Source of the DNA: an uncultured Candidatus Saccharibacteria bacterium
Lineage (GTDB): Bacteria > Patescibacteriota > Minisyncoccia > Phycocordibacterales > UBA2135
Assembly (NCBI GenBank): GCA_964573545.1
Contig: CAZNJQ010000017.1
Location: forward strand, 1-13,844
Direction of reading: 5' to 3'
Length of the DNA stretch: 13,844 bases
Under the pieces are notes generated by a model, which saw nothing but the letters and a program-made list of their open reading frames with translations, was not told the DNA's origin and searched no databases. The stretch's first letter is position 1, and every line of letters starts with the position of its first letter. Below are positions 3,173-13,844 of the stretch, one piece after another. A program made the position numbers and the translations under genes.

Positions 3173-3259
3173 GCGCGGGTGGCGAAATTGGTAGACGCAC
3201 TACCTTGAGGTGGTAGCGGAGGCAACTCCATGGAGGTTCAAATCCTCTCCCGCGCACCA
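3173..3259 (+). tRNA. tRNA-Leu (anticodon GAG), long variable arm, CCA encoded
   Basis: Acceptor GCGCGGG/CCCGCGC, anticodon stem CTACC/GGTAG with loop TTGAGGT, long variable arm CGGAGGCAACTCCAT, T arm GGAGG-TTCAAAT-CCTCT. Confidence 0.9.
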
Positions 3260-3533: not shown

Positions 3534-4353
3534 AGACGGAAGGAAACGCATCGGCGTTTTTGATTCCGGGTTTGGCGGACTTACCATCCTTAAGGGAATC
3601 GTACAGGAGCTTCCGAAGTACGATTACGTGTACCTTGGGGACACCGCGCGTACGCCATACGGGACGCGCTCACCCGAGGTTGTATACGAATTTACCAAAC
3701 AGGCGGTAGATTTTCTTTTTACTCACGGGAGCGAATTGATACTTTTTGCATGCAACACGGCATCAAGCGACGCGCTCCGCAAGATCCAACGTGAATATAT
3801 ACCGAAGCGGTATCCAGGAAAGAAAGTTCTCGGCGTCCTCATCCCGGCTGCCGAAGAAGCTGTTCGGGTGACGAAGCGCGGACGGATCGGCGTTATCGCG
3901 ACAGAAGGGACGGTGTTGTCGGATGCATTTCCGCGCGAGCTTTCAAAACTTGATTCCCGCATACGCGTTTTCCAGAAAGCATGTCCACTCCTTGTGCCGC
4001 TCATAGAAGCAGGAGAGCACCGAACTCCTGCTGCGCGGCTCATACTCAAAAACTATCTTCGTCCGCTTCTTTTAAAACACATAGACACGCTTATTTTAGG
4101 ATGTACGCACTATGGCATTATTGAGCGGGATATCAGGAAGATAACGGGCAAAAATGTGCGCATTATCTCCGAAGGGAGTGTCGTGCCGCGGAAATTAAAA
4201 AAGTATCTTGCAGGGCATAGCGATGTGGAACAGAAGCTCAGCAGAGGCGGGCACATCGCTTTTTATTCAACGGCCGCGACAAATAAATTTGAAAGGCTCG
4301 GAAGCGTGTTCTTCGGAAAAAAAATACACGTAAAAAGAGCAGCGCTTCTATAA
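3517..4353 (+). CDS. murI: Glutamate racemase
   Basis: IGVFDSGFGGLT, FACNTAS and LGCTHY catalytic-cysteine motifs. Start set at the ATG at 3517 (MKSRSKDGRKRIGVFDSG). Confidence 0.92.
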   Translation: MKSRSKDGRKRIGVFDSGFGGLTILKGIVQELPKYDYVYLGDTARTPYGTRSPEVVYEFTKQAVDFLFTHGSELILFACNTASSDALRKIQREYIPKRYPGKKVLGVLIPAAEEAVRVTKRGRIGVIATEGTVLSDAFPRELSKLDSRIRVFQKACPLLVPLIEAGEHRTPAARLILKNYLRPLLLKHIDTLILGCTHYGIIERDIRKITGKNVRIISEGSVVPRKLKKYLAGHSDVEQKLSRGGHIAFYSTAATNKFERLGSVFFGKKIHVKRAALL

Positions 4354-4475
4354 CGTGAAGGTGCACCCGGCGCACACCGATGCATTACTGCTCCTGCCGC
4401 AGCACTAATTCTCATAGCTGGACGGCGGGTGCATTTTGGTGAATAATACAAAACAGAACATTCTGCGGTACGGAG

Positions 4476-6389
4476 TTGTGTATCGTGGCAGATACGATAC
4501 TGAATACAGGCAAAGGCGAGGATTCTAAGGAATTTGAAAAAATCATAAAAGAAATTAAGGAGCTTGAAGATATCGTAGGGAAGGGCGAACACACGCCGGA
4601 AGAGAAAGAACGTATAGCGGTGCGGGTAAAAGAGCTACGAGATTCCGTTGTAGAGCTCGAAAGAATGCGGAAGCAGGACATGATACGTGCTGCGCAGGAT
4701 GTGCAGGAACTCGGGGGGGAGATGGCAGAGCAAGAGACGTTGATTGCGGATCTGGTGACGCGGCTTGCCGCACTGCAATCACAAAACCCCCATGGCTATG
4801 CCACGTTCGTGCGATTTATCGGCATGGAGAAGCCCGACCCTAACGCGAAAGAGCTGCCGGTCATCGAGGTTCGAGGGAATGACGGCAAACTTGCTCAGGT
4901 GTCCTTTTTGGTTAAAGAGGTTGACCCGAAGACGCTCAAATATGGACAACTGCTTATCGCCTCATGCGCAAGTGGGCCGAACCACATCATCGGAGTATCC
5001 GATGGATTCTCTGCCGACGGGAGCGAAGCGGTTGTCCGCGAACTTCTGGGAAGCGACAGAGAGGGCGTTCGTGTGCTGGTAACTATCGGCAGAGAGGATT
5101 CTGCCGAGAAAATAGTTGTCAGGCTCGCGTCAGGGGTCTTACAGGAATCTGTCGTCGAAGGCAGCCGCGTGCTTGTGGATGCGGATGCGAAACTTGTTTT
5201 TGAAGTTTTGCCGCCACAGAAGAGCACTGCGTATGTCGTAAGCGAAATGCCCTCAGTCACCTTTAAGGATATCGGCGGACACGATAGTCTCATCGCCGAG
5301 ATCGACCAAAAGATCGCATGGCCGATTTTGTATCCTGAGGTGTATGAAAAATTGGGGTTACCCGACGCAAAAGGATTCTGTCTTGAGGGTCCTCCTGGTG
5401 TCGGCAAGACGATGCTTGTGAAAGCGATCTTGAACCGTCTCTCGGAGCTCCTCGAGAAAAAGCACGGCGTGCCGGTTCACGGCCATTTCTTTTCGGTAGC
5501 GGGCCCCGAATTCCAGGTTAAGTGGGTTGGCGACACCGAGGAGAGAATGCGTAATCTGTTTAAAACCGCAAAAGAGGCGGCATCGCCGACTTCTCCCGCC
5601 ATTATATTTATTGACGAGGCGGAGTCGATTTTTCCGATTCGCGGATCAGGTATTTCGTCCGATACCGAGAAGACGAACGTTCCACAGTTCACGGCGCTTA
5701 TGGACGGCCTCACGAACCGTGGCAACGTCATCGTCATTTTGGCGACGAACAGAGTCGACCTTATGGACGGAGCGGTTATCCGCCCCGGCCGGTGCGACAA
5801 AAAAATATCCGTCTTGCGTCCCAACAAAGAGGCGGCGCGCGATATCTTCAAAAAATATCTTCTTCCGGGACACGTGCATCCAAAATATCTGGAACACTCG
5901 ATCTATGTTCCGAAAGACAGGAATGGAAGGCCGCGTCGCGGCGATGGAGGGAAAAAGATCGAACTACGACTTGATCGTAGCTCGACAAAGGCGGCGAATT
6001 ACTTGATCAGCGAGGCCGTCCGGAGAATGTATGACGAGCACATCAAAGAAAATCAATTTTTGTCCGTGAAATTTAAGGGCGAGAAAGAATGGACGCACCT
6101 CAGATACGGCGACTTTGCGAGTGGTGCCTTGATTGCGAATATCGTGGACCGCGCGAAGCATTATGCCGCGGCGCGCGTTATAACCACAGCTGAGTCAAAA
6201 GACAAAGCCTTGGGGGTCGAGAAAAAAGACCTCATGCGGGCGATCGAAGAAGTCTTCAGCGAGTTGCGTGCTCCGCAGACGCTGGGATTCCACGATTGGC
6301 TTGCGATCGAAGGCATCGGAAGAGGGAAACGCGTCGAAGATTACAAATTTATACCCGGCTGTGATACAATCGCCGAAGAAGACGATTAA
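4476..6389 (+). CDS. Mpa/ARC-type AAA+ ATPase (coiled coil, double OB, AAA module)
   Basis: N-terminal heptad-rich segment and an OB-like region. Walker A is GPPGVGKT and Walker B is IIFIDEAES. SSDTEKTNVPQFTALMDG, ATNRVDLMDGAVIRPGRCD and FASGALIANIVDRAK are collinear with mycobacterial Mpa. There is no in-frame ATG near the 5' end, so the start is TTG 4476 or, with better SD spacing, GTG 4485. The C-terminus is ...IPGCDTIAEEDD. Confidence 0.9.
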   Translation: MCIVADTILNTGKGEDSKEFEKIIKEIKELEDIVGKGEHTPEEKERIAVRVKELRDSVVELERMRKQDMIRAAQDVQELGGEMAEQETLIADLVTRLAALQSQNPHGYATFVRFIGMEKPDPNAKELPVIEVRGNDGKLAQVSFLVKEVDPKTLKYGQLLIASCASGPNHIIGVSDGFSADGSEAVVRELLGSDREGVRVLVTIGREDSAEKIVVRLASGVLQESVVEGSRVLVDADAKLVFEVLPPQKSTAYVVSEMPSVTFKDIGGHDSLIAEIDQKIAWPILYPEVYEKLGLPDAKGFCLEGPPGVGKTMLVKAILNRLSELLEKKHGVPVHGHFFSVAGPEFQVKWVGDTEERMRNLFKTAKEAASPTSPAIIFIDEAESIFPIRGSGISSDTEKTNVPQFTALMDGLTNRGNVIVILATNRVDLMDGAVIRPGRCDKKISVLRPNKEAARDIFKKYLLPGHVHPKYLEHSIYVPKDRNGRPRRGDGGKKIELRLDRSSTKAANYLISEAVRRMYDEHIKENQFLSVKFKGEKEWTHLRYGDFASGALIANIVDRAKHYAAARVITTAESKDKALGVEKKDLMRAIEEVFSELRAPQTLGFHDWLAIEGIGRGKRVEDYKFIPGCDTIAEEDD

Positions 6390-6410
6390 GTCACGGCCCC
6401 TTGAAAGAAA

Positions 6411-6440
6411 AACCCGCTTATGCAAGCGGGTTTTATTCTT
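6411..6440 (+). terminator. Rho-independent terminator after the ARC ATPase gene
   Basis: aacccgctt-atgc-aagcgggtt followed by ttattctt. Confidence 0.7.
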
Positions 6441-6542
6441 GGTGGCGGAGGCGGAGGCGGAATCACATTCCTGCTTTCTCTCTGCGAATCAAGATCCGGT
6501 ACTTACGCACGTGAGTACCCCTGTGGCTGGACGGAGGGAGCA

Positions 6543-8267
6543 ATGGACAGTCAATCAAAACCGAAAATAATCCTCGGCGCTGAGACTGAATATGGGATAT
6601 TCCTTGACCACAACGAAGAACGAATTCTCCCGGATATGGAATTGTTCTGTATAGAACGCATGCTTGACGAATGCGGACGGTCGTACGTCTCGTTCGGCGG
6701 AGTGCGAGATGTGATCCGGAACATGAAAGAGCACTCTCGTATTGAAGAAGAAGCGTCAGAGCGCAGGCGAATGTTCACCGAAACCGTTCAAAGCACGTTG
6801 GAGCGTTCCATTTCGAGCTCAAGAGCATCAAAGCAGCGCTCCGGCGAAAGCGGCATTAAAATTTCAAATGGCGCTCGGTTTTATCGTGACATGAGCCATC
6901 CGGAATATTCAACTCCGGAAACGACGAACCCATACGATATCGTGGTCGCGGAGCGCGCAGGAGACAAGATCGTTGAAGAGTGCAGGGCACGTGTGGAAGA
7001 TACGGTCAGGAAAGAATACGCGACCGCGTCTCTTTTTATCCACAAAAACAACAGTGATGGTCGCGAGACGAGCTACGGCGGACATGAAAATTATTCCGTC
7101 ACACTTGATGTTTTTAAGGCCGTCATGAATGACGGACGAGAGTGCAACGGGGAGCGCCGCGGGCGCGGGAGTAGGACGCATACGGTCGGGATGATGACGG
7201 AACTTATTTTCCTCTTCTTCGTCGCTCGTCAGATCGTTATCGGTTCAGGCAAGGTTGGCTCCGAATATGGTCCCGATGTGCCGTACCAAATTTCGCAACG
7301 GAGCGATTTTTTCTCCCGGCGATTCAGTTGGGTTACGACGCACGATAGGGGTATCATAAATCTTCGCAATATCCCCTACGCGGGCGATGCGTTTCTGAGA
7401 CGCTTTCATGTGATCCTTGGGGACAGTAATATGTCGGAGCTCTCGATATACCTCAAGCACGGGATTACGGGCATCTTCTTTATGATGCTGAACACCGGCT
7501 TTTTCAAAGAGCAATGCGGCGACATATTTTCTCCGCTTGCTGATCCGGTACGGGCGCTTCATACTGTGTCTCGCGATCTCTCACTTGAGCGGAAGCTGCC
7601 TCTCCTGGATGGGCGGCGGATGAGCGCGCTTGAGATTATGAAACTTTTCGCTGAGTGTGCGACGAAATTCTTATCGCTCCACGAATTACCCGCCGTATGG
7701 ACTGACGTCGTTCACAAATGGGACGGGGTTCTGGAGGGCCTTGCGGGAGAGCGGCACAAACACCCGCTTTCACGGTCGCTTGATTGGGTCGCGAAGGAGC
7801 GGCTTATCAACGCCGTTGTTCGCCAGAGAGAGGTTGATCCGCTAAGCAAGGAGTGCGCGTCGGTTGCGCTTGAATACCATAATTTGAATCCCGAGCAAGG
7901 CATCTTTTATCGTCTTGAAAAACGAGGCGATATACTGCGCCTTTCAGATGACGCCGATGTAGAGCGGGCACTCACAGAAGCTCCTCGCGACACGCGGGCA
8001 TGGTTCCGTTCAGAACTTATCAAGCGGTATCGCGATCATATAGAAAGCATTGGATGGAAGTCGGTTAAATTCATGACCAAGAAATTTTTCGCCGTCATTG
8101 AGTTTCCAAATCCGCTCTGGGGAGGCCCAAGGGACGCCGAAGAGCTTTTGCGCAACAATCCGCCGCTCCATGTTCTCATTCTGCGGTTATTGTCGCTAGA
8201 TGCGGAGGATGTTGTTGTCTCGTTGTATCAGAGACACGGGTATACGGAAGGAGAGAATGATGCGTGA
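6543..8267 (+). CDS. Dop/PafA-family protein, paralogue 1 (tentatively Dop-like depupylase)
   Basis: Family motifs GAETEYGI, NGARFYRDMSHPEYSTPE, SYGGHENYS, FVARQIVIGSGKVG, RFHVILGDSNMSE and APRDTRAWFR. Start set at the ATG at 6543, behind GGAGGGAG. The ~95-aa spacer between ETEYG and NGAR resembles the Dop-specific loop region. The Dop versus PafA assignment is inference. Confidence 0.85.
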   Translation: MDSQSKPKIILGAETEYGIFLDHNEERILPDMELFCIERMLDECGRSYVSFGGVRDVIRNMKEHSRIEEEASERRRMFTETVQSTLERSISSSRASKQRSGESGIKISNGARFYRDMSHPEYSTPETTNPYDIVVAERAGDKIVEECRARVEDTVRKEYATASLFIHKNNSDGRETSYGGHENYSVTLDVFKAVMNDGRECNGERRGRGSRTHTVGMMTELIFLFFVARQIVIGSGKVGSEYGPDVPYQISQRSDFFSRRFSWVTTHDRGIINLRNIPYAGDAFLRRFHVILGDSNMSELSIYLKHGITGIFFMMLNTGFFKEQCGDIFSPLADPVRALHTVSRDLSLERKLPLLDGRRMSALEIMKLFAECATKFLSLHELPAVWTDVVHKWDGVLEGLAGERHKHPLSRSLDWVAKERLINAVVRQREVDPLSKECASVALEYHNLNPEQGIFYRLEKRGDILRLSDDADVERALTEAPRDTRAWFRSELIKRYRDHIESIGWKSVKFMTKKFFAVIEFPNPLWGGPRDAEELLRNNPPLHVLILRLLSLDAEDVVVSLYQRHGYTEGENDA

Positions 8268-9795
8268 CCGGGTGATGGGTATAGAAAATGAGTTCGGTGC
8301 TGTTATTGAGTCCCCAGACGGCAGTTTTGATTATCTGCCGACAGACGGTCCATATGACACCCTGGTTGTAGGTGAGACTCTTAATATGCAACTTGAGAAA
8401 CAGAGAGACAAACTGGGATTCATGAGAATGAAAAACCGACTCTGGTTCCCGAACGGGGGATGCCTTTACATCGACCAGGGGCACTTCGAATATGCTTCTC
8501 CGGAATGCAGGCGAGTGCGAGACATCGTCGCGTATAGCCGAGCCGGGGAAGCTCTTGCAGAGAAAGTCGCTTCAGAGAGATTTTATTCCGGCAGCAGATT
8601 CCGGCTTATCAAGAACAATGTTGCGCTGAGCGCCGCTACAGGAATGACCGAGCCTGTTAAGACCAAATATGTCACGTTCGGCGCCCATGAAAACTACTTG
8701 TTCTTCGAGAATGGAGAGAGCGGGCTTTTTTCTTCCGGCCCCGAGTCCGAGATAAAACAGGGGAATTACTTCCGGGCGTTCATGGCGTTTTTGGTGACCC
8801 GCCAGATCATTGACGGCGCGGGGCGATGGATCGATGAGCCGAAGAATGCGTACATATTCTCTCAGCGTGCTTTATTCATCGAAAAGGAGTTCGAGATGGG
8901 CACTACGGGCGCGCGGTCTATCATAAACAAGCGGTCTGAGCACCACATTGATGACGGCTCACTTGATCCCCCAGAGCACCTGAAAGGGATGAAACGACTA
9001 CACCTTATCTTGGGAGACGCGAACATCCTCGATGCGGCGTTGTTCCTTAAAATCGGGACAACAAAGCTCGTGCTATCGCTTCTCGAAGAAGGGAAAATGC
9101 CGAATGTGAAAATGCGAGACCCTGTGAAAGCGAACCGCGATGTATCGCTCGTCTACAGTCCAACAACGCCGTGTATTGAGCTTGAAGACGGGACAATGGT
9201 GAGTGCATTCTATGTGCAATCGGCGTTTTACGAGAAGGCGCGGCATTATCTTTCGCACACGTGTTTTGAATCCGAGGAGAGCGAAGCGGAAGCAAAGGAA
9301 ATACTCTCTCTGTGGGAGCGTGCGCTTAAGGCGCTTGAGAGCACCGATATGGAATGGATGGTCGGACGACTTGACCATGTGACGAAGAACTTTATTGCGC
9401 AGCAGGAAATAAAAAGACAGAGGCGAGAAAACCCTCCTGTCTTCGAGGAAGCGGTCGTAGCGGCCATTGAAATCCAGTACCACGAGCTTGGCGACGACGC
9501 GTTATCGTCCAAAATGCGGGCGAAATGGAGCAGTCGGTGTATTGTGACCGACGAAGAAGTGCTCCGCGCTATCGAGAACCCACCCCCCGACACGCGCGCA
9601 TGCGCACGCGGCTTGATCGTCCGGGCATATCTTGAAAAGAAAATTCCGCTTCAGGATGTCGATTGGAGCAAGATTCAGATCGGCACAAGCCCGATCGGGT
9701 CGGTAAGCGGCGCGCAGATGTACCCGGTGTATCAGTCTCCGGACCCACTTATCGCACGGCCTTCGTGGTTATATGAATTTTGTCCCGGCATGTAG
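8257..9795 (+). CDS. Dop/PafA-family protein, paralogue 2 (tentatively PafA-like Pup ligase)
   Basis: Motifs MGIENEFG, NGGCLYIDQGHFEYASPE, FGAHENYL, FLVTRQIIDGAGR, RLHLILGDANILD and NPPPDTRACARG. ATGATG at 8257/8260 sits behind GGAAGGAG and overlaps the stop of paralogue 1 by 11 nt. Confidence 0.85.
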   Translation: MMRDRVMGIENEFGAVIESPDGSFDYLPTDGPYDTLVVGETLNMQLEKQRDKLGFMRMKNRLWFPNGGCLYIDQGHFEYASPECRRVRDIVAYSRAGEALAEKVASERFYSGSRFRLIKNNVALSAATGMTEPVKTKYVTFGAHENYLFFENGESGLFSSGPESEIKQGNYFRAFMAFLVTRQIIDGAGRWIDEPKNAYIFSQRALFIEKEFEMGTTGARSIINKRSEHHIDDGSLDPPEHLKGMKRLHLILGDANILDAALFLKIGTTKLVLSLLEEGKMPNVKMRDPVKANRDVSLVYSPTTPCIELEDGTMVSAFYVQSAFYEKARHYLSHTCFESEESEAEAKEILSLWERALKALESTDMEWMVGRLDHVTKNFIAQQEIKRQRRENPPVFEEAVVAAIEIQYHELGDDALSSKMRAKWSSRCIVTDEEVLRAIENPPPDTRACARGLIVRAYLEKKIPLQDVDWSKIQIGTSPIGSVSGAQMYPVYQSPDPLIARPSWLYEFCPGM

Positions 9796-9807
9796 CACGC
9801 AAAGATG

Positions 9808-9822
9808 CGGTATGGTATCGTA
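9808..9822 (+). promoter_or_regulatory. Second exact copy of the 15-mer cggtatggtatcgta (candidate extended -10)
   Basis: Identical to 2586-2600. Located between the pafA-like stop (9795) and the pup-like ATG (9855). Confidence 0.35.
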
Positions 9823-9854
9823 ACGGCAGAGAAGGCAGGTTGCGGAAGTAAAAG

Positions 9855-10031
9855 ATGACCTCGAAGAAAACATCGCCCCAAAAGCCGAACCCGAAAGGGA
9901 AAGGAAAAAAGGGGGCGTCCGGTAAAGACACGAAAGACGACACTCTCGATATTTCCGGGCTTGTCGACACGGCATCGTCTGAACGCGCAAAGAAACTTGC
10001 CGAGAAGTACAAACAAAAAGGTGGAGAATGA
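9855..10031 (+). CDS. Pup/UBact-like small modifier protein (58 aa), not in the supplied ORF track
   Basis: Hand translation: MTSKKTSPQKPNPKGKGKKGASGKDTKDDTLDISGLVDTASSERAKKLAEKYKQKGGE-stop. The C-terminal YKQKGGE parallels mycobacterial Pup ...YVQKGGQ. It has an SD-like GGAAG upstream and a terminator directly downstream, and it follows two Dop/PafA genes. Confidence 0.75.
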   Translation: MTSKKTSPQKPNPKGKGKKGASGKDTKDDTLDISGLVDTASSERAKKLAEKYKQKGGE

Positions 10032-10034
10032 CCC

Positions 10035-10066
10035 AAAGCCGCTCGCTTGATTTGAGCGGCTTTTTT
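10035..10066 (+). terminator. Rho-independent terminator after the pup-like ORF
   Basis: aaagccgctc-gcttgattt-gagcggcttt followed by ttt. Confidence 0.75.
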
Positions 10067-10112
10067 CATTACCCTTGTTTTAGATGTTCTCTGAAACGGA
10101 AGGCTGCAGACG

Positions 10113-12668
10113 ATGTCTCTGCAAGGCACCAAAATCGGCTTTGAGGATGCTCGCCGAGTATGCGAAGAAGAGCTTTGCGCAATGCCCGCTTCCTCCGGAG
10201 AGGAAGATTCTTCCCAGCGGGCGGCAACGAGTTCATTTTTCGGAGTCAGCCAGGAGCGTTTTCTAAGCGCTCTCTCTGTTGCCATCGAGAGCAATGACCA
10301 GTTCGCAAATGTGTTTGTTTCCGGAATCTCAGGACCGGGCGGACTTGAAGCTGTTGAATGGCATGTCTCACGCATGGTTCGGGAACGGGAAAACATCGGC
10401 GACAAAAAACCCGCTCCGAATGACTGGGTATATGTGTACAATTTCAAGAACCCCCGCTCTCCCGTTTCGATTCCTCTCACTAAAGGTAATGCGAGAGTAT
10501 TTCAAAAAAAGATCGGGCTCTTACTCAAGAAATTACGCCAGCTCATTCCGGAGGCGCTCACGAGCGATACGGTCCTCGCGAAAGACAACGCTTTGTATGG
10601 CCAGTACGAGGGATGGTTTGATGCGGAAAAGGAGGCGATTGCGAGGCGCGCATTGGAGCTTGGACTTGAGATGAAAACTGCCCAGTCGCAGAAAGGAGTG
10701 GAAACTGTACGGTTCGTTCCGTCAGAGCGTACACAAGAGCCGGGCGCTGAAAAGCAGGAAGTTTCGGAAAAGAAGCCTCGCGCCTCAAAAGGAAAACTAA
10801 AAAGACACGCATCGGCGCTTCGCCAAAAACCCCAGGACGCGAATCGTGAAGGAGGGATGTCGGAAGAAGATCTTCGTCCCAAACTCACAGAGCTTTTTTC
10901 ACTGTGGACCGCGCTTATTCAAGAGAATACGCGGCGCATGAAACAATATTCTGAAAGCGCGGAGCATGTCAGAGAAGAGGCTGCCAAGGAAGTGATTGTC
11001 GACTTGTTTTCCAAATTGAACGTCGAGCAGAAAGATGCTTCACTCCTCGGCAATTTCATCGATGGGCTCCGCGAGCACGCGGAAGAAAACTGGGAGTTGT
11101 TCGCCGAAGAGGACCGCAAGAACAACCAACACGCGCCCTTTGGGGCGGCAATGGAACGCGATCAGTTCTTGCCATGGCGCGTGAATGTGTTCATCGACAA
11201 CAGTGGAACAGACGGTACTCCTGTCGTCGCAGAGCGCGTTTCATCGATTGCCGACCTTGTCGGCAAAGTCGAGTATCGCGGCATGATGGGAATCACATTT
11301 ACGGATCACACGATGATAGTTCCCGGCGCAGTTGCTAGGGCGAACGGCGGGTTCATCATCTTAAGCGCAGAGGAATTACTGACGGTTCCGGGTTTATGGC
11401 AGCTTCTGAAGCGGTGCATCAAAAACAACGCCAATGGTTTTGATACGATCATGTCACTTGAAGGCTACGGCACGTCTCAGATCGATCCCATTCCGATTCC
11501 TCTCGACCTTCGGTTTATCTTGTTCGGCTCAAGCAGTCTCATAAACTTCATCGCCGAACATGACCACGAATTTTACGACCTATTTCCTGTCCGGGCTGAG
11601 ATCTCTAATGTTGTCGAGTGTTCGGATACGGAAATTCGTGCGTATTGCAATTGGATGCGCGATGTTTCTCGAGAGCGCACGTTACTGCCGCTTTCGGCAG
11701 GCGCGTGCGCAGGCATGATCGAATATGCGGGACGGGTCGCGGACCACAAATATGAGCTGACGACGGATTTTTCCCACCTCGAGGGAGTACTAAAAGAGGC
11801 TCACGTGGTCGCGAAGCACGAACACGCGGAGAATATCTCGCGGGTCCATGTTCAAAAAGCGATCCATGCAAAGTTCTGGAGAGGGGATTTCATCTGCGAA
11901 CTCATGCGTAAGGGCGTTCGTGATTCACAGCGTGTCATCCATGTTTCCGGAGAATCGGTAGGGCGCATCAACGGACTTACTGTTTTGTCATACGGCGATA
12001 TCACGTTTGGTTTCCCGTGCTGCATAACAGCGGGTGTGAATGTCGGAAAGCCTGGAATTCTCAACATCGTTCGCGATGCCAAGATGAGCGGCAACCTTTT
12101 GAACAAGGCGGACGAGACGGTCCAAGGTGTCCTTAAGGGGCGGTTTGCGCAACGCTTTCCGCTTGCCCTTGAAATCTGTTTCAGTTTTGAACAGTCGTAC
12201 GGGATGATAGACGGCGACAGTGCGTCGCTTGCCGAATATTTCGTCATTACATCGCGAATTTCCGGGGTTCCCATCAAACAATCCATCGCCGTTACGGGTT
12301 CATTGAGTCTCCTCGGAGATGTTCAGCCGATTGGCGGCGTGAACGAGAAAATCGAAGGATTCTTTGACGTATGCGTTGCCTGTGGCGGCCTTTCCGGCGA
12401 GCAGGGAGTCATTATTCCCTGGCAGAACAAAGTCAACCTCATGCTTCGCGAAGATGTGGTTCAGGCGATAAAAGAAAACAAATTCCACATCTGGGCGATA
12501 CGAACGCTCGATGAGGGGATTGAGATTCTCACAGGAATGAGCGCGGGGACTTTACAACAGGAAAATGGAAGTTACCCCGACGATACGTTTAACGCGCGCG
12601 TGTGCAAGAAGATTGAAGAATACGCACGGCACGCAAAAGAGTTTTTTGAACCTTCAAAAAAAGATTAA
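10113..12668 (+). CDS. Lon-like serine protease (AAA_32-like N-region plus Lon_C/S16 domain) with degenerate ATPase motifs
   Basis: The C-terminal S16 domain has MIDGDSASLAEY (LonB/LonC-type Ser motif; Ser codon 12219-12221) and IGGVNEKIEGF (catalytic Lys). DWVYVYNFKNPRSP is typical of this Lon-like family. The Walker A position reads GISGPGGLE (no Lys-Ser/Thr) and the Walker B position reads GGFIILSAEE (no Asp). A long charged helical insertion sits in between. Confidence 0.85.
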   Translation: MSLQGTKIGFEDARRVCEEELCAMPASSGEEDSSQRAATSSFFGVSQERFLSALSVAIESNDQFANVFVSGISGPGGLEAVEWHVSRMVRERENIGDKKPAPNDWVYVYNFKNPRSPVSIPLTKGNARVFQKKIGLLLKKLRQLIPEALTSDTVLAKDNALYGQYEGWFDAEKEAIARRALELGLEMKTAQSQKGVETVRFVPSERTQEPGAEKQEVSEKKPRASKGKLKRHASALRQKPQDANREGGMSEEDLRPKLTELFSLWTALIQENTRRMKQYSESAEHVREEAAKEVIVDLFSKLNVEQKDASLLGNFIDGLREHAEENWELFAEEDRKNNQHAPFGAAMERDQFLPWRVNVFIDNSGTDGTPVVAERVSSIADLVGKVEYRGMMGITFTDHTMIVPGAVARANGGFIILSAEELLTVPGLWQLLKRCIKNNANGFDTIMSLEGYGTSQIDPIPIPLDLRFILFGSSSLINFIAEHDHEFYDLFPVRAEISNVVECSDTEIRAYCNWMRDVSRERTLLPLSAGACAGMIEYAGRVADHKYELTTDFSHLEGVLKEAHVVAKHEHAENISRVHVQKAIHAKFWRGDFICELMRKGVRDSQRVIHVSGESVGRINGLTVLSYGDITFGFPCCITAGVNVGKPGILNIVRDAKMSGNLLNKADETVQGVLKGRFAQRFPLALEICFSFEQSYGMIDGDSASLAEYFVITSRISGVPIKQSIAVTGSLSLLGDVQPIGGVNEKIEGFFDVCVACGGLSGEQGVIIPWQNKVNLMLREDVVQAIKENKFHIWAIRTLDEGIEILTGMSAGTLQQENGSYPDDTFNARVCKKIEEYARHAKEFFEPSKKD

Positions 12669-12681
12669 AACACCAAGAGAT

Positions 12682-12714
12682 AAACGCAGCCCCAAAGCTG
12701 CGTTTTTTTGTTTT
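12682..12714 (+). terminator. Rho-independent terminator after the lon-like gene
   Basis: aaacgcagc-cccaaa-gctgcgttt followed by ttttgtttt. Confidence 0.8.
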
Positions 12715-12763
12715 AAAAAACCGCATTGAGTGAAGAGACATCTTCTCTTCGCCTCAATGCGGT
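12715..12763 (-). terminator. Terminator for the convergent CDF gene
   Basis: ccgcattgag/ctcaatgcgg outer stem with a gaagag/ctcttc inner stem, followed on the minus strand by a T-run. The right arm overlaps the last codons and stop of the CDF gene. Confidence 0.65.
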
Positions 12764-13461
12764 TTGTGTTCAGGAGCATGAATACCGTTTTGGACTTTAG
12801 TGAACAAAGTTCCGGAGAGAAAGAACATATAGGCGGCAACCGCCACAGAGAGTATCGGGTCGGCATGCACCCATCCGAACGCGAATGTCGCTAGCCAGGA
12901 GGCGGCGACGACGACAGAGAGCAATAGATCCGATATCACGTGCAGCGAGAATGTCGCGTGCGTATGGTTGTGTTCCTTGTTCGGAATTTTCTCGAGCAGG
13001 CGGTGTATCCACACATTGCCTGCACCGCCGATGATGGCAATCATAAGCACGAGCCAACTTTGGTTGTATACCGGTGCGCTCATGCGTTCATGCGCTTCGA
13101 CGAGCACATAGAAGGCGCCGCCGACAAGCAAGGCGATTCCTGCATACGCGAATATCTTCCGGACGCTGAGTTCCTGGGCCGTTGAACACCGCAACGCCAG
13201 GAGAGCTACGAAGAGCGAACCAATGTAAATCGCGACAAGATCCGAACTTGCATGGATCGTATCGCCGAGGAGCGTCAAGCTTTTCGAATAGATAATGAGG
13301 ACTGCTTGCTGCGCCGCAACGATCGCCCCTTGGACGAGCGACGCGATGCCATAGATTCTGGCCTCTTTTTTAATGTCGACGATTCTCGTGCCTGCGCTCG
13401 AATCGTCCGTGTGCTCGTGCCCCTCCGGATGGAGGTGGCAATGCGTGTGCGATTCGTGCAT
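12754..13461 (-). CDS. Cation diffusion facilitator (CDF) family metal exporter, membrane domain only
   Basis: Six predicted TM segments. TM2 has HASSD and TM5 has HVISD (HxxxD pairs of the CDF metal site). The N-terminus is His-rich (MHESHTHCHLHPEGHEH). Start set at the ATG at 13461, behind GGAGGA with 7-nt spacing; the track start is 13515. Confidence 0.8.
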   Translation of the reverse strand: MHESHTHCHLHPEGHEHTDDSSAGTRIVDIKKEARIYGIASLVQGAIVAAQQAVLIIYSKSLTLLGDTIHASSDLVAIYIGSLFVALLALRCSTAQELSVRKIFAYAGIALLVGGAFYVLVEAHERMSAPVYNQSWLVLMIAIIGGAGNVWIHRLLEKIPNKEHNHTHATFSLHVISDLLLSVVVAASWLATFAFGWVHADPILSVAVAAYMFFLSGTLFTKVQNGIHAPEHKPH

Positions 13462-13652
13462 CGCGCTTCCTCCAATGGTTGGTTGTGGAAAAGAATTCTG
13501 CGCGAACTCTATCATGCTTCAACGCTCTTGTCAAAATGTAGACTTTGTTGCGTAAAGTGTGCTATAACAATAAGCGACTTCAAAAGCGGATATGAAAATG
13601 TAGTGCGTCGGGATATTTTTACTTTTTCATTTTTACTTTTGAACTTTTACAC

Positions 13653-13725
13653 GGTGCCTATGGTGTAACGGTTAGCACAGCTCCCTGTGGAGGAGCCAGA
13701 CTGGGTTCGAATCCCAGTAGGCACC
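13653..13725 (+). tRNA. tRNA-His (anticodon GUG) with genomically encoded G-1
   Basis: G-1 opposite C73, acceptor GTGCCTA/TAGGCAC, D stem GTGT/GCAC, anticodon loop CTGTGGA, 4-nt variable loop, T arm CTGGG-TTCGAAT-CCCAG. CCA is not fully encoded. Confidence 0.88.
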
Positions 13726-13737
13726 CAAAAATAATGA

Positions 13738-13770
13738 AGCAGATGCGGAAGCATCTGCTGAATATATTTT
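13738..13770 (+). terminator. Hairpin plus T-run after tRNA-His (its tail may double as a -10 for the next RNA)
   Basis: agcagatgc-ggaa-gcatctgct followed by gaatatattttt. TGaATATAT resembles an extended -10 element ending about 5 nt before position 13772. Confidence 0.5.
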
Positions 13771-13771
13771 T

Positions 13772-13844
13772 GGAGTGCGTAATGGGATTCGAAGGGCGCA
13801 GTCCCGGCTTTGCCGGGACGAGCCGGGGTCGCGAGTCCCGCCAT
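13772..13844 (+). ncRNA. ssrA: Probable 5' part of tmRNA (SsrA), truncated by the window edge
   Basis: GGAGUGCGUAAUGGGAUUCGAAGGGCG matches the conserved tmRNA 5' pattern (E. coli GGGGCUGAUUCUGGAUUCGACGGGAU). An 8-bp hairpin GUCCCGGC-UUU-GCCGGGAC follows. Position 3 is A rather than the expected G, and the 3' tRNA-like half is off-window. Confidence 0.45.

Follow-up and report, generated by a model that had tools for sequence, protein, structure and literature searches.

The question raised by this locus was what a 58-codon open reading frame (ORF) encodes that lies directly behind two Pup_ligase genes, and which degradation machine, if any, its product would serve. The ORF is at positions 9855 to 10031 on the plus strand of contig CAZNJQ010000017.1, of which the whole 13,844-nucleotide stretch analysed here is termed the window. 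Bacteria are known to have only one counterpart of degradation directed by ubiquitin, namely Pup tagging. It is tied to the 20S proteasome in Actinomycetota and a few other phyla, and UBact is the analogue of Pup in Nitrospirota, Verrucomicrobiota and further phyla of Gram-negative bacteria. The original prediction had described the ORF as encoding a Pup-like modifier. As set out below, the ORF is a real gene, and its product is probably a highly divergent, intrinsically disordered Pup-family tag of about 55 residues, which would be ligated by a PafA-like enzyme, removed by a Dop-like enzyme and recognized by an Mpa-like ATPase.

A conserved small gene behind the ligase genes

The ORF starts with ATG, ends with TGA and encodes the protein MTSKKTSPQKPNPKGKGKKGASGKDTKDDTLDISGLVDTASSERAKKLAEKYKQKGGE. 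This product is of low-complexity composition, with 14 Lys among 58 residues, a net charge of +7 and an isoelectric point (pI) of 9.8. Its N-terminal half is Lys-rich and predicted to be disordered; an LDISGLV patch, a predicted C-terminal helix and a YKQKGGE terminus follow, so that the last four residues are KGGE. The 58 codons, the count of 14 Lys, the GGE end and the placement after two Pup_ligase paralogues were all as originally predicted. The ORF had also been called hidden, which is true in that it falls below the 60-residue limit of the ORF track used; public gene callers do, however, call it, as NCBI hypothetical protein AAB727_03820 of a metagenome-assembled genome (MAG) named "Patescibacteria group bacterium". 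Fifteen contigs carry a call for the exact protein, and most of them come from Hainich groundwater metagenomes. All organism labels derive from the one fragmented NCBI MAG, and the assignment to Patescibacteria rests on that label.

Putative expression signals flank the ORF on both sides. A weak Shine-Dalgarno-like GGAAG, read from the sequence, is at 9844 to 9848 on the plus strand, 6 nucleotides 5' of the ATG, and GGAG or AGGAG was found at equal spacing upstream of the homologous ORFs in relatives. On the 3' side, a hairpin (10035 to 10063) with a T-run forms an intrinsic-terminator-like element at 10035 to 10066 on the plus strand, 4 nucleotides past the stop codon. Its stem has 11 base pairs, six of them G-C, and it ranked first among terminator-like sites in a scan of positions 4000 to 13844. 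A hairpin with a T-run was present 3' of the tag ORF in contigs L012, L015, L099 and L097 as well, at the same position and with differing sequences. The tag gene may end its transcription unit there, or be attenuated, ahead of the Lon-like gene that follows. The Shine-Dalgarno-like site, the terminator, the public gene calls and the conserved family described below establish the ORF as a real gene.

The original prediction had dismissed as spurious a 243-residue antisense ORF (9749 to 10480, minus strand) that overlaps the tag ORF and the terminator and extends into the Lon-like gene at its 5' end. The matching antisense stretches in relatives were open for 250, 227, 119, 263, 88, 61 and 75 codons. 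Because the open length is not conserved among relatives, ranging from 61 to 263 codons, the antisense ORF was likewise judged spurious here.

Homologues of the tag were collected by several routes. A word-indexed search returned only the exact protein and one relative at 88% identity (P0002), and a profile version added one more. Ligase relatives of 34 to 40% identity pointed to syntenic contigs, among which L012 and L015 show an AAA gene, two ligase genes, the small ORF and Lon in that order; the small ORF has 57 residues in L012 (ending TGE) and 53 in L015 (ending GGE). A HMMER search with a five-sequence profile, exhaustive over 1.84 billion representative proteins, gave eight proteins at E ≤ 0.001. 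Seven of these were small proteins of the tag family, from seven clusters, and the other, a 504-residue repeat protein (P0038), was rejected as spurious. Contig L099 carries a complete cassette. Further ligase contigs and a pattern scan of metagenomes contributed three more members: L102, with a tag of 60 residues ending in LDISDLLSKSKQLVRKYRQKGGQ; L106, with 57 residues ending in QVGQTGGQ; and L101, a truncated member represented by its N-terminus only. Ten of the 12 matches of the pattern scan were discarded as chance matches. A scan of genome contigs with the ligase alignment yielded, among the matches listed, only relatives of about 30% identity, from Actinomycetota, Nitrospirota and Poribacteria, and these loci served as labelled references.

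The family comprises ten complete members of 53 to 60 residues at 26 to 34% identity. All ten end in G-[EQ] (six Glu, four Gln). Among 2003 open stretches taken as background, each at least 30 codons long, 9 (0.45%) have such an end. The tag gene was always directly 3' of a PafA-like ligase gene, as seen in the window and in L012, L015, L099, L100, L101, L102 and L106. Members have in common a start of the form M-[STPA]-Q-[KE]-[QR], of which the window protein and P0002 retain only M-[TS]-x-K-K; a charged linker of low complexity; a D-L-x-[IFLM]-x-[DEG]-[LI] patch, which has degenerated to D-D-L-F-x-F-D-D in P0040 and L106; a stretch prone to form a helix; and the G-[EQ] end. In L106 the tag ORF (1356 to 1529, GGQ end) lies between two PafA-like, paralogue-2-like genes within positions 63 to 2104, which represents a second cassette architecture.

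The two halves of the protein differ in how they vary. The window protein and P0002 have seven residue differences, all in codons 2 to 30, and the two genes differ by seven non-synonymous and five synonymous codons, too few to decide on selection. One of these changes, synonymous, falls in the C-terminal 28 codons. The pI is 9.8 for the window protein and P0002, 9.1 for L102 and 4.6 to 5.5, that is acidic, for the other seven members, and the N-terminal half is Lys-rich also in P0035, P0037 and L101. The basic N-terminal half pointed out in the original prediction is thus real in the window but is no family trait, and it behaves like a fast-drifting disordered linker. The chain-forming or nucleic-acid-binding role proposed for it found no support, given the unconserved basicity and the confinement of all differences from the 88% relative to codons 2 to 30. 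An AlphaFold model of the tag had a predicted local distance difference test score of 64.7, which is low confidence; residues 1 to 38 were modelled as unstructured, residues 39 to 55 as a helix and the last three residues as extended. Such low confidence would be as expected for a disordered tag.

Relationship to Pup and UBact

The curated models for Pup (Pfam PF05639, NCBIfam TIGR03687) and UBact (Pfam PF20513, NCBIfam NF033388) returned nothing at E ≤ 10, neither for the window protein nor for six relatives. The same models scored Pup and UBact proteins from the labelled reference loci at 70 to 80 bits (80.2 and 74.2 for reference Pup). Hidden Markov models (HMMs) of our own, built from 21 Pup and 4 UBact sequences, ranked the window protein and three relatives no higher than shuffled copies (500 each). 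A significant match to a Pup or UBact profile, as looked for in the original prediction, was therefore not obtained by these means. When the method was calibrated, our Pup and UBact HMMs were found to miss each other's families as well (0.6 bits; hhalign P = 0.13). Profile-profile comparison with shuffle controls was therefore adopted.

The hhalign comparison of the tag family with the Pup profile gave 31% (P 5e-4) with four members, 64% (P 6.5e-5) with eight, 89% (P 2.2e-6) with nine and 90.9% (P = 1.2e-6, 29 columns) with ten. The match became stronger as the family grew, spanned the last 27 to 29 columns and ended exactly on the terminal residue. None of 200 full column shuffles of the eight-member profile reached the observed score of 25.0 (mean 8.5, maximum 15.5), and neither did any of 200 in which the terminal GG[EQ] was held fixed (maximum 19.2). 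For the nine-member profile with terminal columns fixed, none of 150 shuffles reached the observed 31.5 (maximum 19.5). The L102 protein scored 39.8 bits with the eight-member family HMM and 12.5 bits with Pfam Pup (E = 0.29, end-anchored; cut-off 27 bits), and it came first of 1001 when ranked against its own shuffles with our Pup HMM. It forms a bridge between the tag family and Pup.

The likeness of the tag to both Pup and UBact had been claimed, and the Pup part of that claim was upheld by these data. The UBact part was not, for the family as a whole: the hhalign match to UBact was 56% over 13 columns with four members, at which stage it was the best match, and dropped to 23.6% with ten. 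The tails quoted in support, FVRAYVQKGGQ for Pup and YRQRTGE for UBact, were both recovered from labelled reference loci. The string KYKQKGGE of the window is common only to P0002, with the similar RKYRQKGGQ in L102. The UBact core ...VDPxQAxRY[RK]QR[TS]GE was absent from the family; only the Y-K-Q-K-G-G-E of the window resembles a part of it, and this is not family-conserved.

Pup-family proteins have been described as having 50 to 90 residues, a G-[EQ] end, a PafA-family neighbour and a core of two helices from which a C-terminal tail extends (Iyer et al. 2008, PMC2588565), and the length, the end and the adjacency to a PafA-like gene are all found in the tag family. The AlphaFold model of the window tag, with its single helix, would agree with such a fold, at low confidence. 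Further likenesses are the start, in which M-x-Q-[EK]-Q resembles MAQEQ or MPQEQ in the Pup of actinobacteria, an acidic patch like D-L-L-D-x-I-D, a predicted helix near the C-terminus, and a Q-x-G-G-[EQ] end at which Glu and Gln alternate. At the level of the cassette, the tag gene abuts a PafA-like ligase gene and Dop-like and Mpa-like partners are present, as in Pup systems. The family differs from Pup in being missed by the curated models, with 12.5 bits for the best member against a 27-bit cut-off, in a central helix region that is shorter and charged differently, and, in the window lineage, in a basic rather than acidic N-terminal half. The host differs as well, its label being Patescibacteria and not Actinomycetota. 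From these sequence comparisons we conclude that the small ORF family is best taken as a branch of Pup that has diverged strongly and belongs to neither of the curated families.

Two other identities were considered for the product. If it were a member of the UBact family, the window tail AEKYKQKGGE, which resembles the UBact AERYRQRTGE, the Glu end usual in UBact tags, the small size, the position beside Pup_ligase paralogues in a non-actinobacterial lineage and the early preference of the four-member profile would all be accommodated. That membership is nevertheless highly improbable, as PF20513 and NF033388 detect reference UBacts and no tag family member, the ten-member profile is closer to Pup, the L-L-K-R-M-R-K-V-D-P-x-Q-A core with its VDPxQA is lacking, and four members have the Gln end that is a Pup trait. 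The ORF might instead encode something that is never conjugated, an unrelated small protein such as a basic peptide that binds nucleic acid, or one that regulates the ligases or Lon or serves them as an adaptor, or it might be non-functional. This would agree with the lack of a curated family match, the low-complexity composition, the strong basicity of the window protein (pI 9.8) and the low-confidence structure prediction. We regard it as scarcely credible, in that ten homologues at 26 to 34% identity keep the frame, the length, the terminal G-[EQ] and the position, basicity is not conserved, and the Pup match exceeded all shuffle controls. The alternation of Glu and Gln is moreover explained by the deamidation and ligation chemistry of Pup and has no evident explanation otherwise.

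UBact tags have reportedly been seen in some candidate phyla, according to the UBact paper. Pup-type tags outside Actinomycetota are already known (PMC2588565), and for that reason the window cassette is not considered a new kind of system. The window tag is rather a new sequence variant of Pup, missed by curated models, in a distinctive and conserved LonC context to which it is possibly coupled. The family probably represents a third sequence class of Pup-like tags, whose genes, being missed by Pfam and NCBIfam models, are left as hypothetical proteins, and the ten-member alignment could serve as the start of a new model for annotating such genes in genomes.

Candidate partner enzymes and the LonC-type protease

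Paralogue 1 (6420 to 8267, plus strand; Pfam Pup_ligase, 374 bits) scored higher with the NCBIfam model for Dop (328 bits) than with that for PafA (283 bits), the Dop equivalog cut-off being 492.3. Comparison with PDB sequences gave 239.7 bits for Dop (4b0r) and 168.6 bits for PafA (4b0t). In all four paralogue-1 proteins, 40 to 50 residues are inserted after the GxETEYG strand and before the NGARxY motif, at the site of the Dop-loop that tells Dop from PafA (PMC7947786). On account of the higher Dop scores and this insertion, paralogue 1 was deduced to be Dop-like, and it is a predicted depupylase or deamidase. Its annotated ATG (6420) sits in a terminator-like hairpin (6409 to 6434) 3' of the ATPase gene, and nothing equivalent to its first 41 residues (MQAGFILGGGGGGG...) is present in the homologues from L012, L015 and L099. 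The true start is probably near 6543, at Met42 (MDSQSKPKIILGAETEYG), about where those homologues begin. At 7101 to 7205, corresponding to residues 228 to 262 or so, about 30 extra residues past the HENY motif (SVTLDVFKAVMNDGRECNGERRGRGSRTHTVGMMT...) did not align with homologues or with solved Dop structures.

Paralogue 2 (8257 to 9795, plus strand; 512 residues with the start taken from public calls; Pfam Pup_ligase, 285 bits) overlaps paralogue 1 by 11 nucleotides and does not have the Dop-loop insertion. The NCBIfam scores were 232.7 bits for PafA, with a cut-off of 551.3, and 203.9 bits for Dop, and the scores against PDB sequences were 147 bits for PafA and 139 bits for Dop. By these comparisons paralogue 2 tilts slightly toward PafA and is the predicted tag ligase.

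The third enzyme is a 634-residue Mpa/ARC-like AAA+ ATPase (4485 to 6389, plus strand; Pfam AAA and Prot_ATP_ID_OB_C), a predicted unfoldase in which an N-terminus resembling a coiled coil and an OB domain are combined with one AAA module that carries the Walker A motif GPPGVGKT. It scored 314.8 bits with NCBIfam TIGR03689 (pup_AAA), for which the cut-off is 504.75, and 238.7 bits over residues 172 to 617 with the Mpa structure 5kwa. A GQYL-type C-terminal motif is the means by which Mpa docks on the 20S proteasome. The C-terminus of the window ATPase reads ...IAEEDD, is variable across the four cassettes, and in none of them is a GQYL-type tail. The ATPase and both paralogues are, from their scores, divergent members of their families.

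Two ligase loci of other architecture were noted in the course of the searches. On L013, from a MAG labelled only "bacterium", seven tandem Pup_ligase paralogues of 473 to 489 residues (3491 to 14610) are beside hrcA-grpE-dnaK-dnaJ; a 44-residue ORF 3' of this array was rejected as unrelated, and no Pup-like small ORF was recognisable there. On L016 (4972 to 7153) a lone Pup_ligase gene is found, with no second paralogue, ATPase or Pup-like ORF, and its convergent neighbour has a faint match to Prok-JAB, a deubiquitinase-like metalloprotease.

The gene that follows the tag encodes an 851-residue LonC-type Lon-like protease (10113 to 12668, plus strand; Pfam LonC_helical, AAA_32, LonB_AAA-LID and Lon_C). 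Together with the lack of proteasome genes it is the most unusual feature of the locus, and it was not discussed in the original prediction. Its best PDB match was MtaLonC of Meiothermus taiwanensis (4fwd, E = 1.6e-65), with the GDSA motif of the catalytic Ser and the NxK[IV]EGF motif of the catalytic Lys aligned. The two proteins have in common the LonC_helical, AAA-like and Lon_C domains; the Walker A motif (GxxxxGK[ST]), which MtaLonC does not have either, was absent from the window protein and its L015 and L099 homologues, and the AAA-like domain is degenerate. The window protease differs from MtaLonC in being about 120 residues longer and in having its gene beside a Pup-type tagging cassette. 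MtaLonC forms a hexameric chamber, has no ATPase activity and breaks down proteins that are unfolded, leaving well-folded ones intact (PMC3391209; see also PMC13069640). A homologous Lon-like gene was directly 3' of the tag in six lineages (window, L012, L015, L099/L100, L098 and L102). On L012 (5661 to 8171) the LonC-like gene is present as three ORFs of 289, 291 and 221 residues that jointly cover the window protein; it may be a pseudogene or a gene that is genuinely split, or a frameshift in the assembly may account for the three ORFs.

No proteasome-family gene was found on the window, L012, L015 or L099 contigs. A tblastn search with a mycobacterial proteasome subunit found a homologue only in the Nitrospirales reference locus (L042), which is of the UBact type and has this gene near its tag, in contrast to the window. 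The window cassette thus differs from the Pup-proteasome system in an ATPase without the GQYL tail, in having no prcA or prcB nearby and in the LonC-type gene that follows. No published link was found between LonC and Pup, or between pupylation and Patescibacteria.

A possible route to LonC, its alternatives and the surrounding genes

In Pup biochemistry, PafA ligates Pup ending in Glu and Dop deamidates Pup ending in Gln (PMC7947786). The window tag would be ligation-ready because its terminus is Glu, and the original prediction that no deamidation step is needed agrees with this established chemistry (PMC7947786). By analogy with Pup (PMC2588565, PMC7947786), paralogue 2 would phosphorylate the terminal Glu's gamma-carboxylate and join it to lysines of substrates. 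Dop-like paralogue 1 would, by the same analogy, remove the tag and, in relatives whose tag ends in Gln, deamidate it first. The Mpa-like ATPase ring may bind the helical C-terminal half of the tag through its coiled-coil N-terminus, with the disordered N-terminal half serving as a threading handle into the ATPase. The unfolded chain could then pass to the adjacent LonC chamber in place of a 20S proteasome, although this hand-over is put forward tentatively. The whole amounts to a proteasome-independent Pup pathway, from a divergent tag through an Mpa-like hexameric unfoldase to a LonC chamber without an ATPase of its own, which we consider possible and would not press further.

Several findings weigh against this proposal or parts of it. 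In addition to the failure of the curated models and of our own HMMs, the link to Pup rests on a profile-profile alignment of 29 columns, which supports homology without proving it. The ATPase and both ligase paralogues all fall below the NCBIfam equivalog cut-offs, and the two PDB scores that bear on paralogue 2 are only 8 bits apart. The 20S gene absence covers contigs of 14 to 22 kb rather than whole genomes. With regard to LonC in particular, a terminator separates the Lon gene from the tag gene, and the L106 tag is followed by another ligase gene, not Lon.

The last two of these findings would be explained readily if the tag were conjugated and had a non-degradative role, in regulation or in ATPase-driven disassembly of complexes of the kind known for actinobacteria without a proteasome, with LonC a separate quality-control gene kept adjacent by co-regulation or inheritance. 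The terminator is strong and kept across lineages, and the ATPase C-termini are not conserved, leaving no evident docking motif. Corynebacteria are an example of Pup without a proteasome, and Pup systems unlinked to the proteasome are also known from Plesiocystis and Rhodopirellula (PMC2588565). It is, however, difficult to reconcile with a purely separate LonC that six lineages, with ligases of only about 35 to 40% identity, have the same LonC clade directly 3' of the tag, and that LonC itself lacks unfoldase activity (PMC3391209) while a dedicated unfoldase is encoded three genes upstream. We therefore consider a non-degradative role unlikely.

Delivery to LonC, tentative as it is, would have consequences beyond this locus. 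A complete toolkit of tag, ligase, Dop-like paralogue and unfoldase is present in a lineage labelled Patescibacteria, and it is repeatedly linked to a LonC-type protease and not to a proteasome. As LonC cuts only unfolded chains and has no motor, the cassette offers a testable answer to how LonC is supplied with substrate. If the proposed pathway holds, LonC, whose physiological source of unfolded substrate is unclear, would gain a dedicated tag-and-unfoldase delivery in ultra-small bacteria labelled Patescibacteria, and one tagging system would have been rewired to a different degradation machine.

The cassette is embedded among genes of other functions. On the plus strand the window begins with tRNA-Val, uppS, an RluA-family pseudouridine synthase gene, rplS, tRNA-Leu and murI, followed by the Mpa-like ATPase gene, paralogues 1 and 2, the small ORF and the Lon-like gene; 3' of the latter are a minus-strand cation-efflux gene and tRNA-His. 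The G+C content is flat across the window, at 0.49 to 0.53, and the cassette is therefore not a compositional island. The tRNA genes are Val-TAC (742 to 817), Leu-GAG (3173 to 3259) and His-GTG (13654 to 13726). The rplS ORF as listed (171 residues) reaches about 28 residues beyond L19 models at its N-terminus, and its start may be mis-set.

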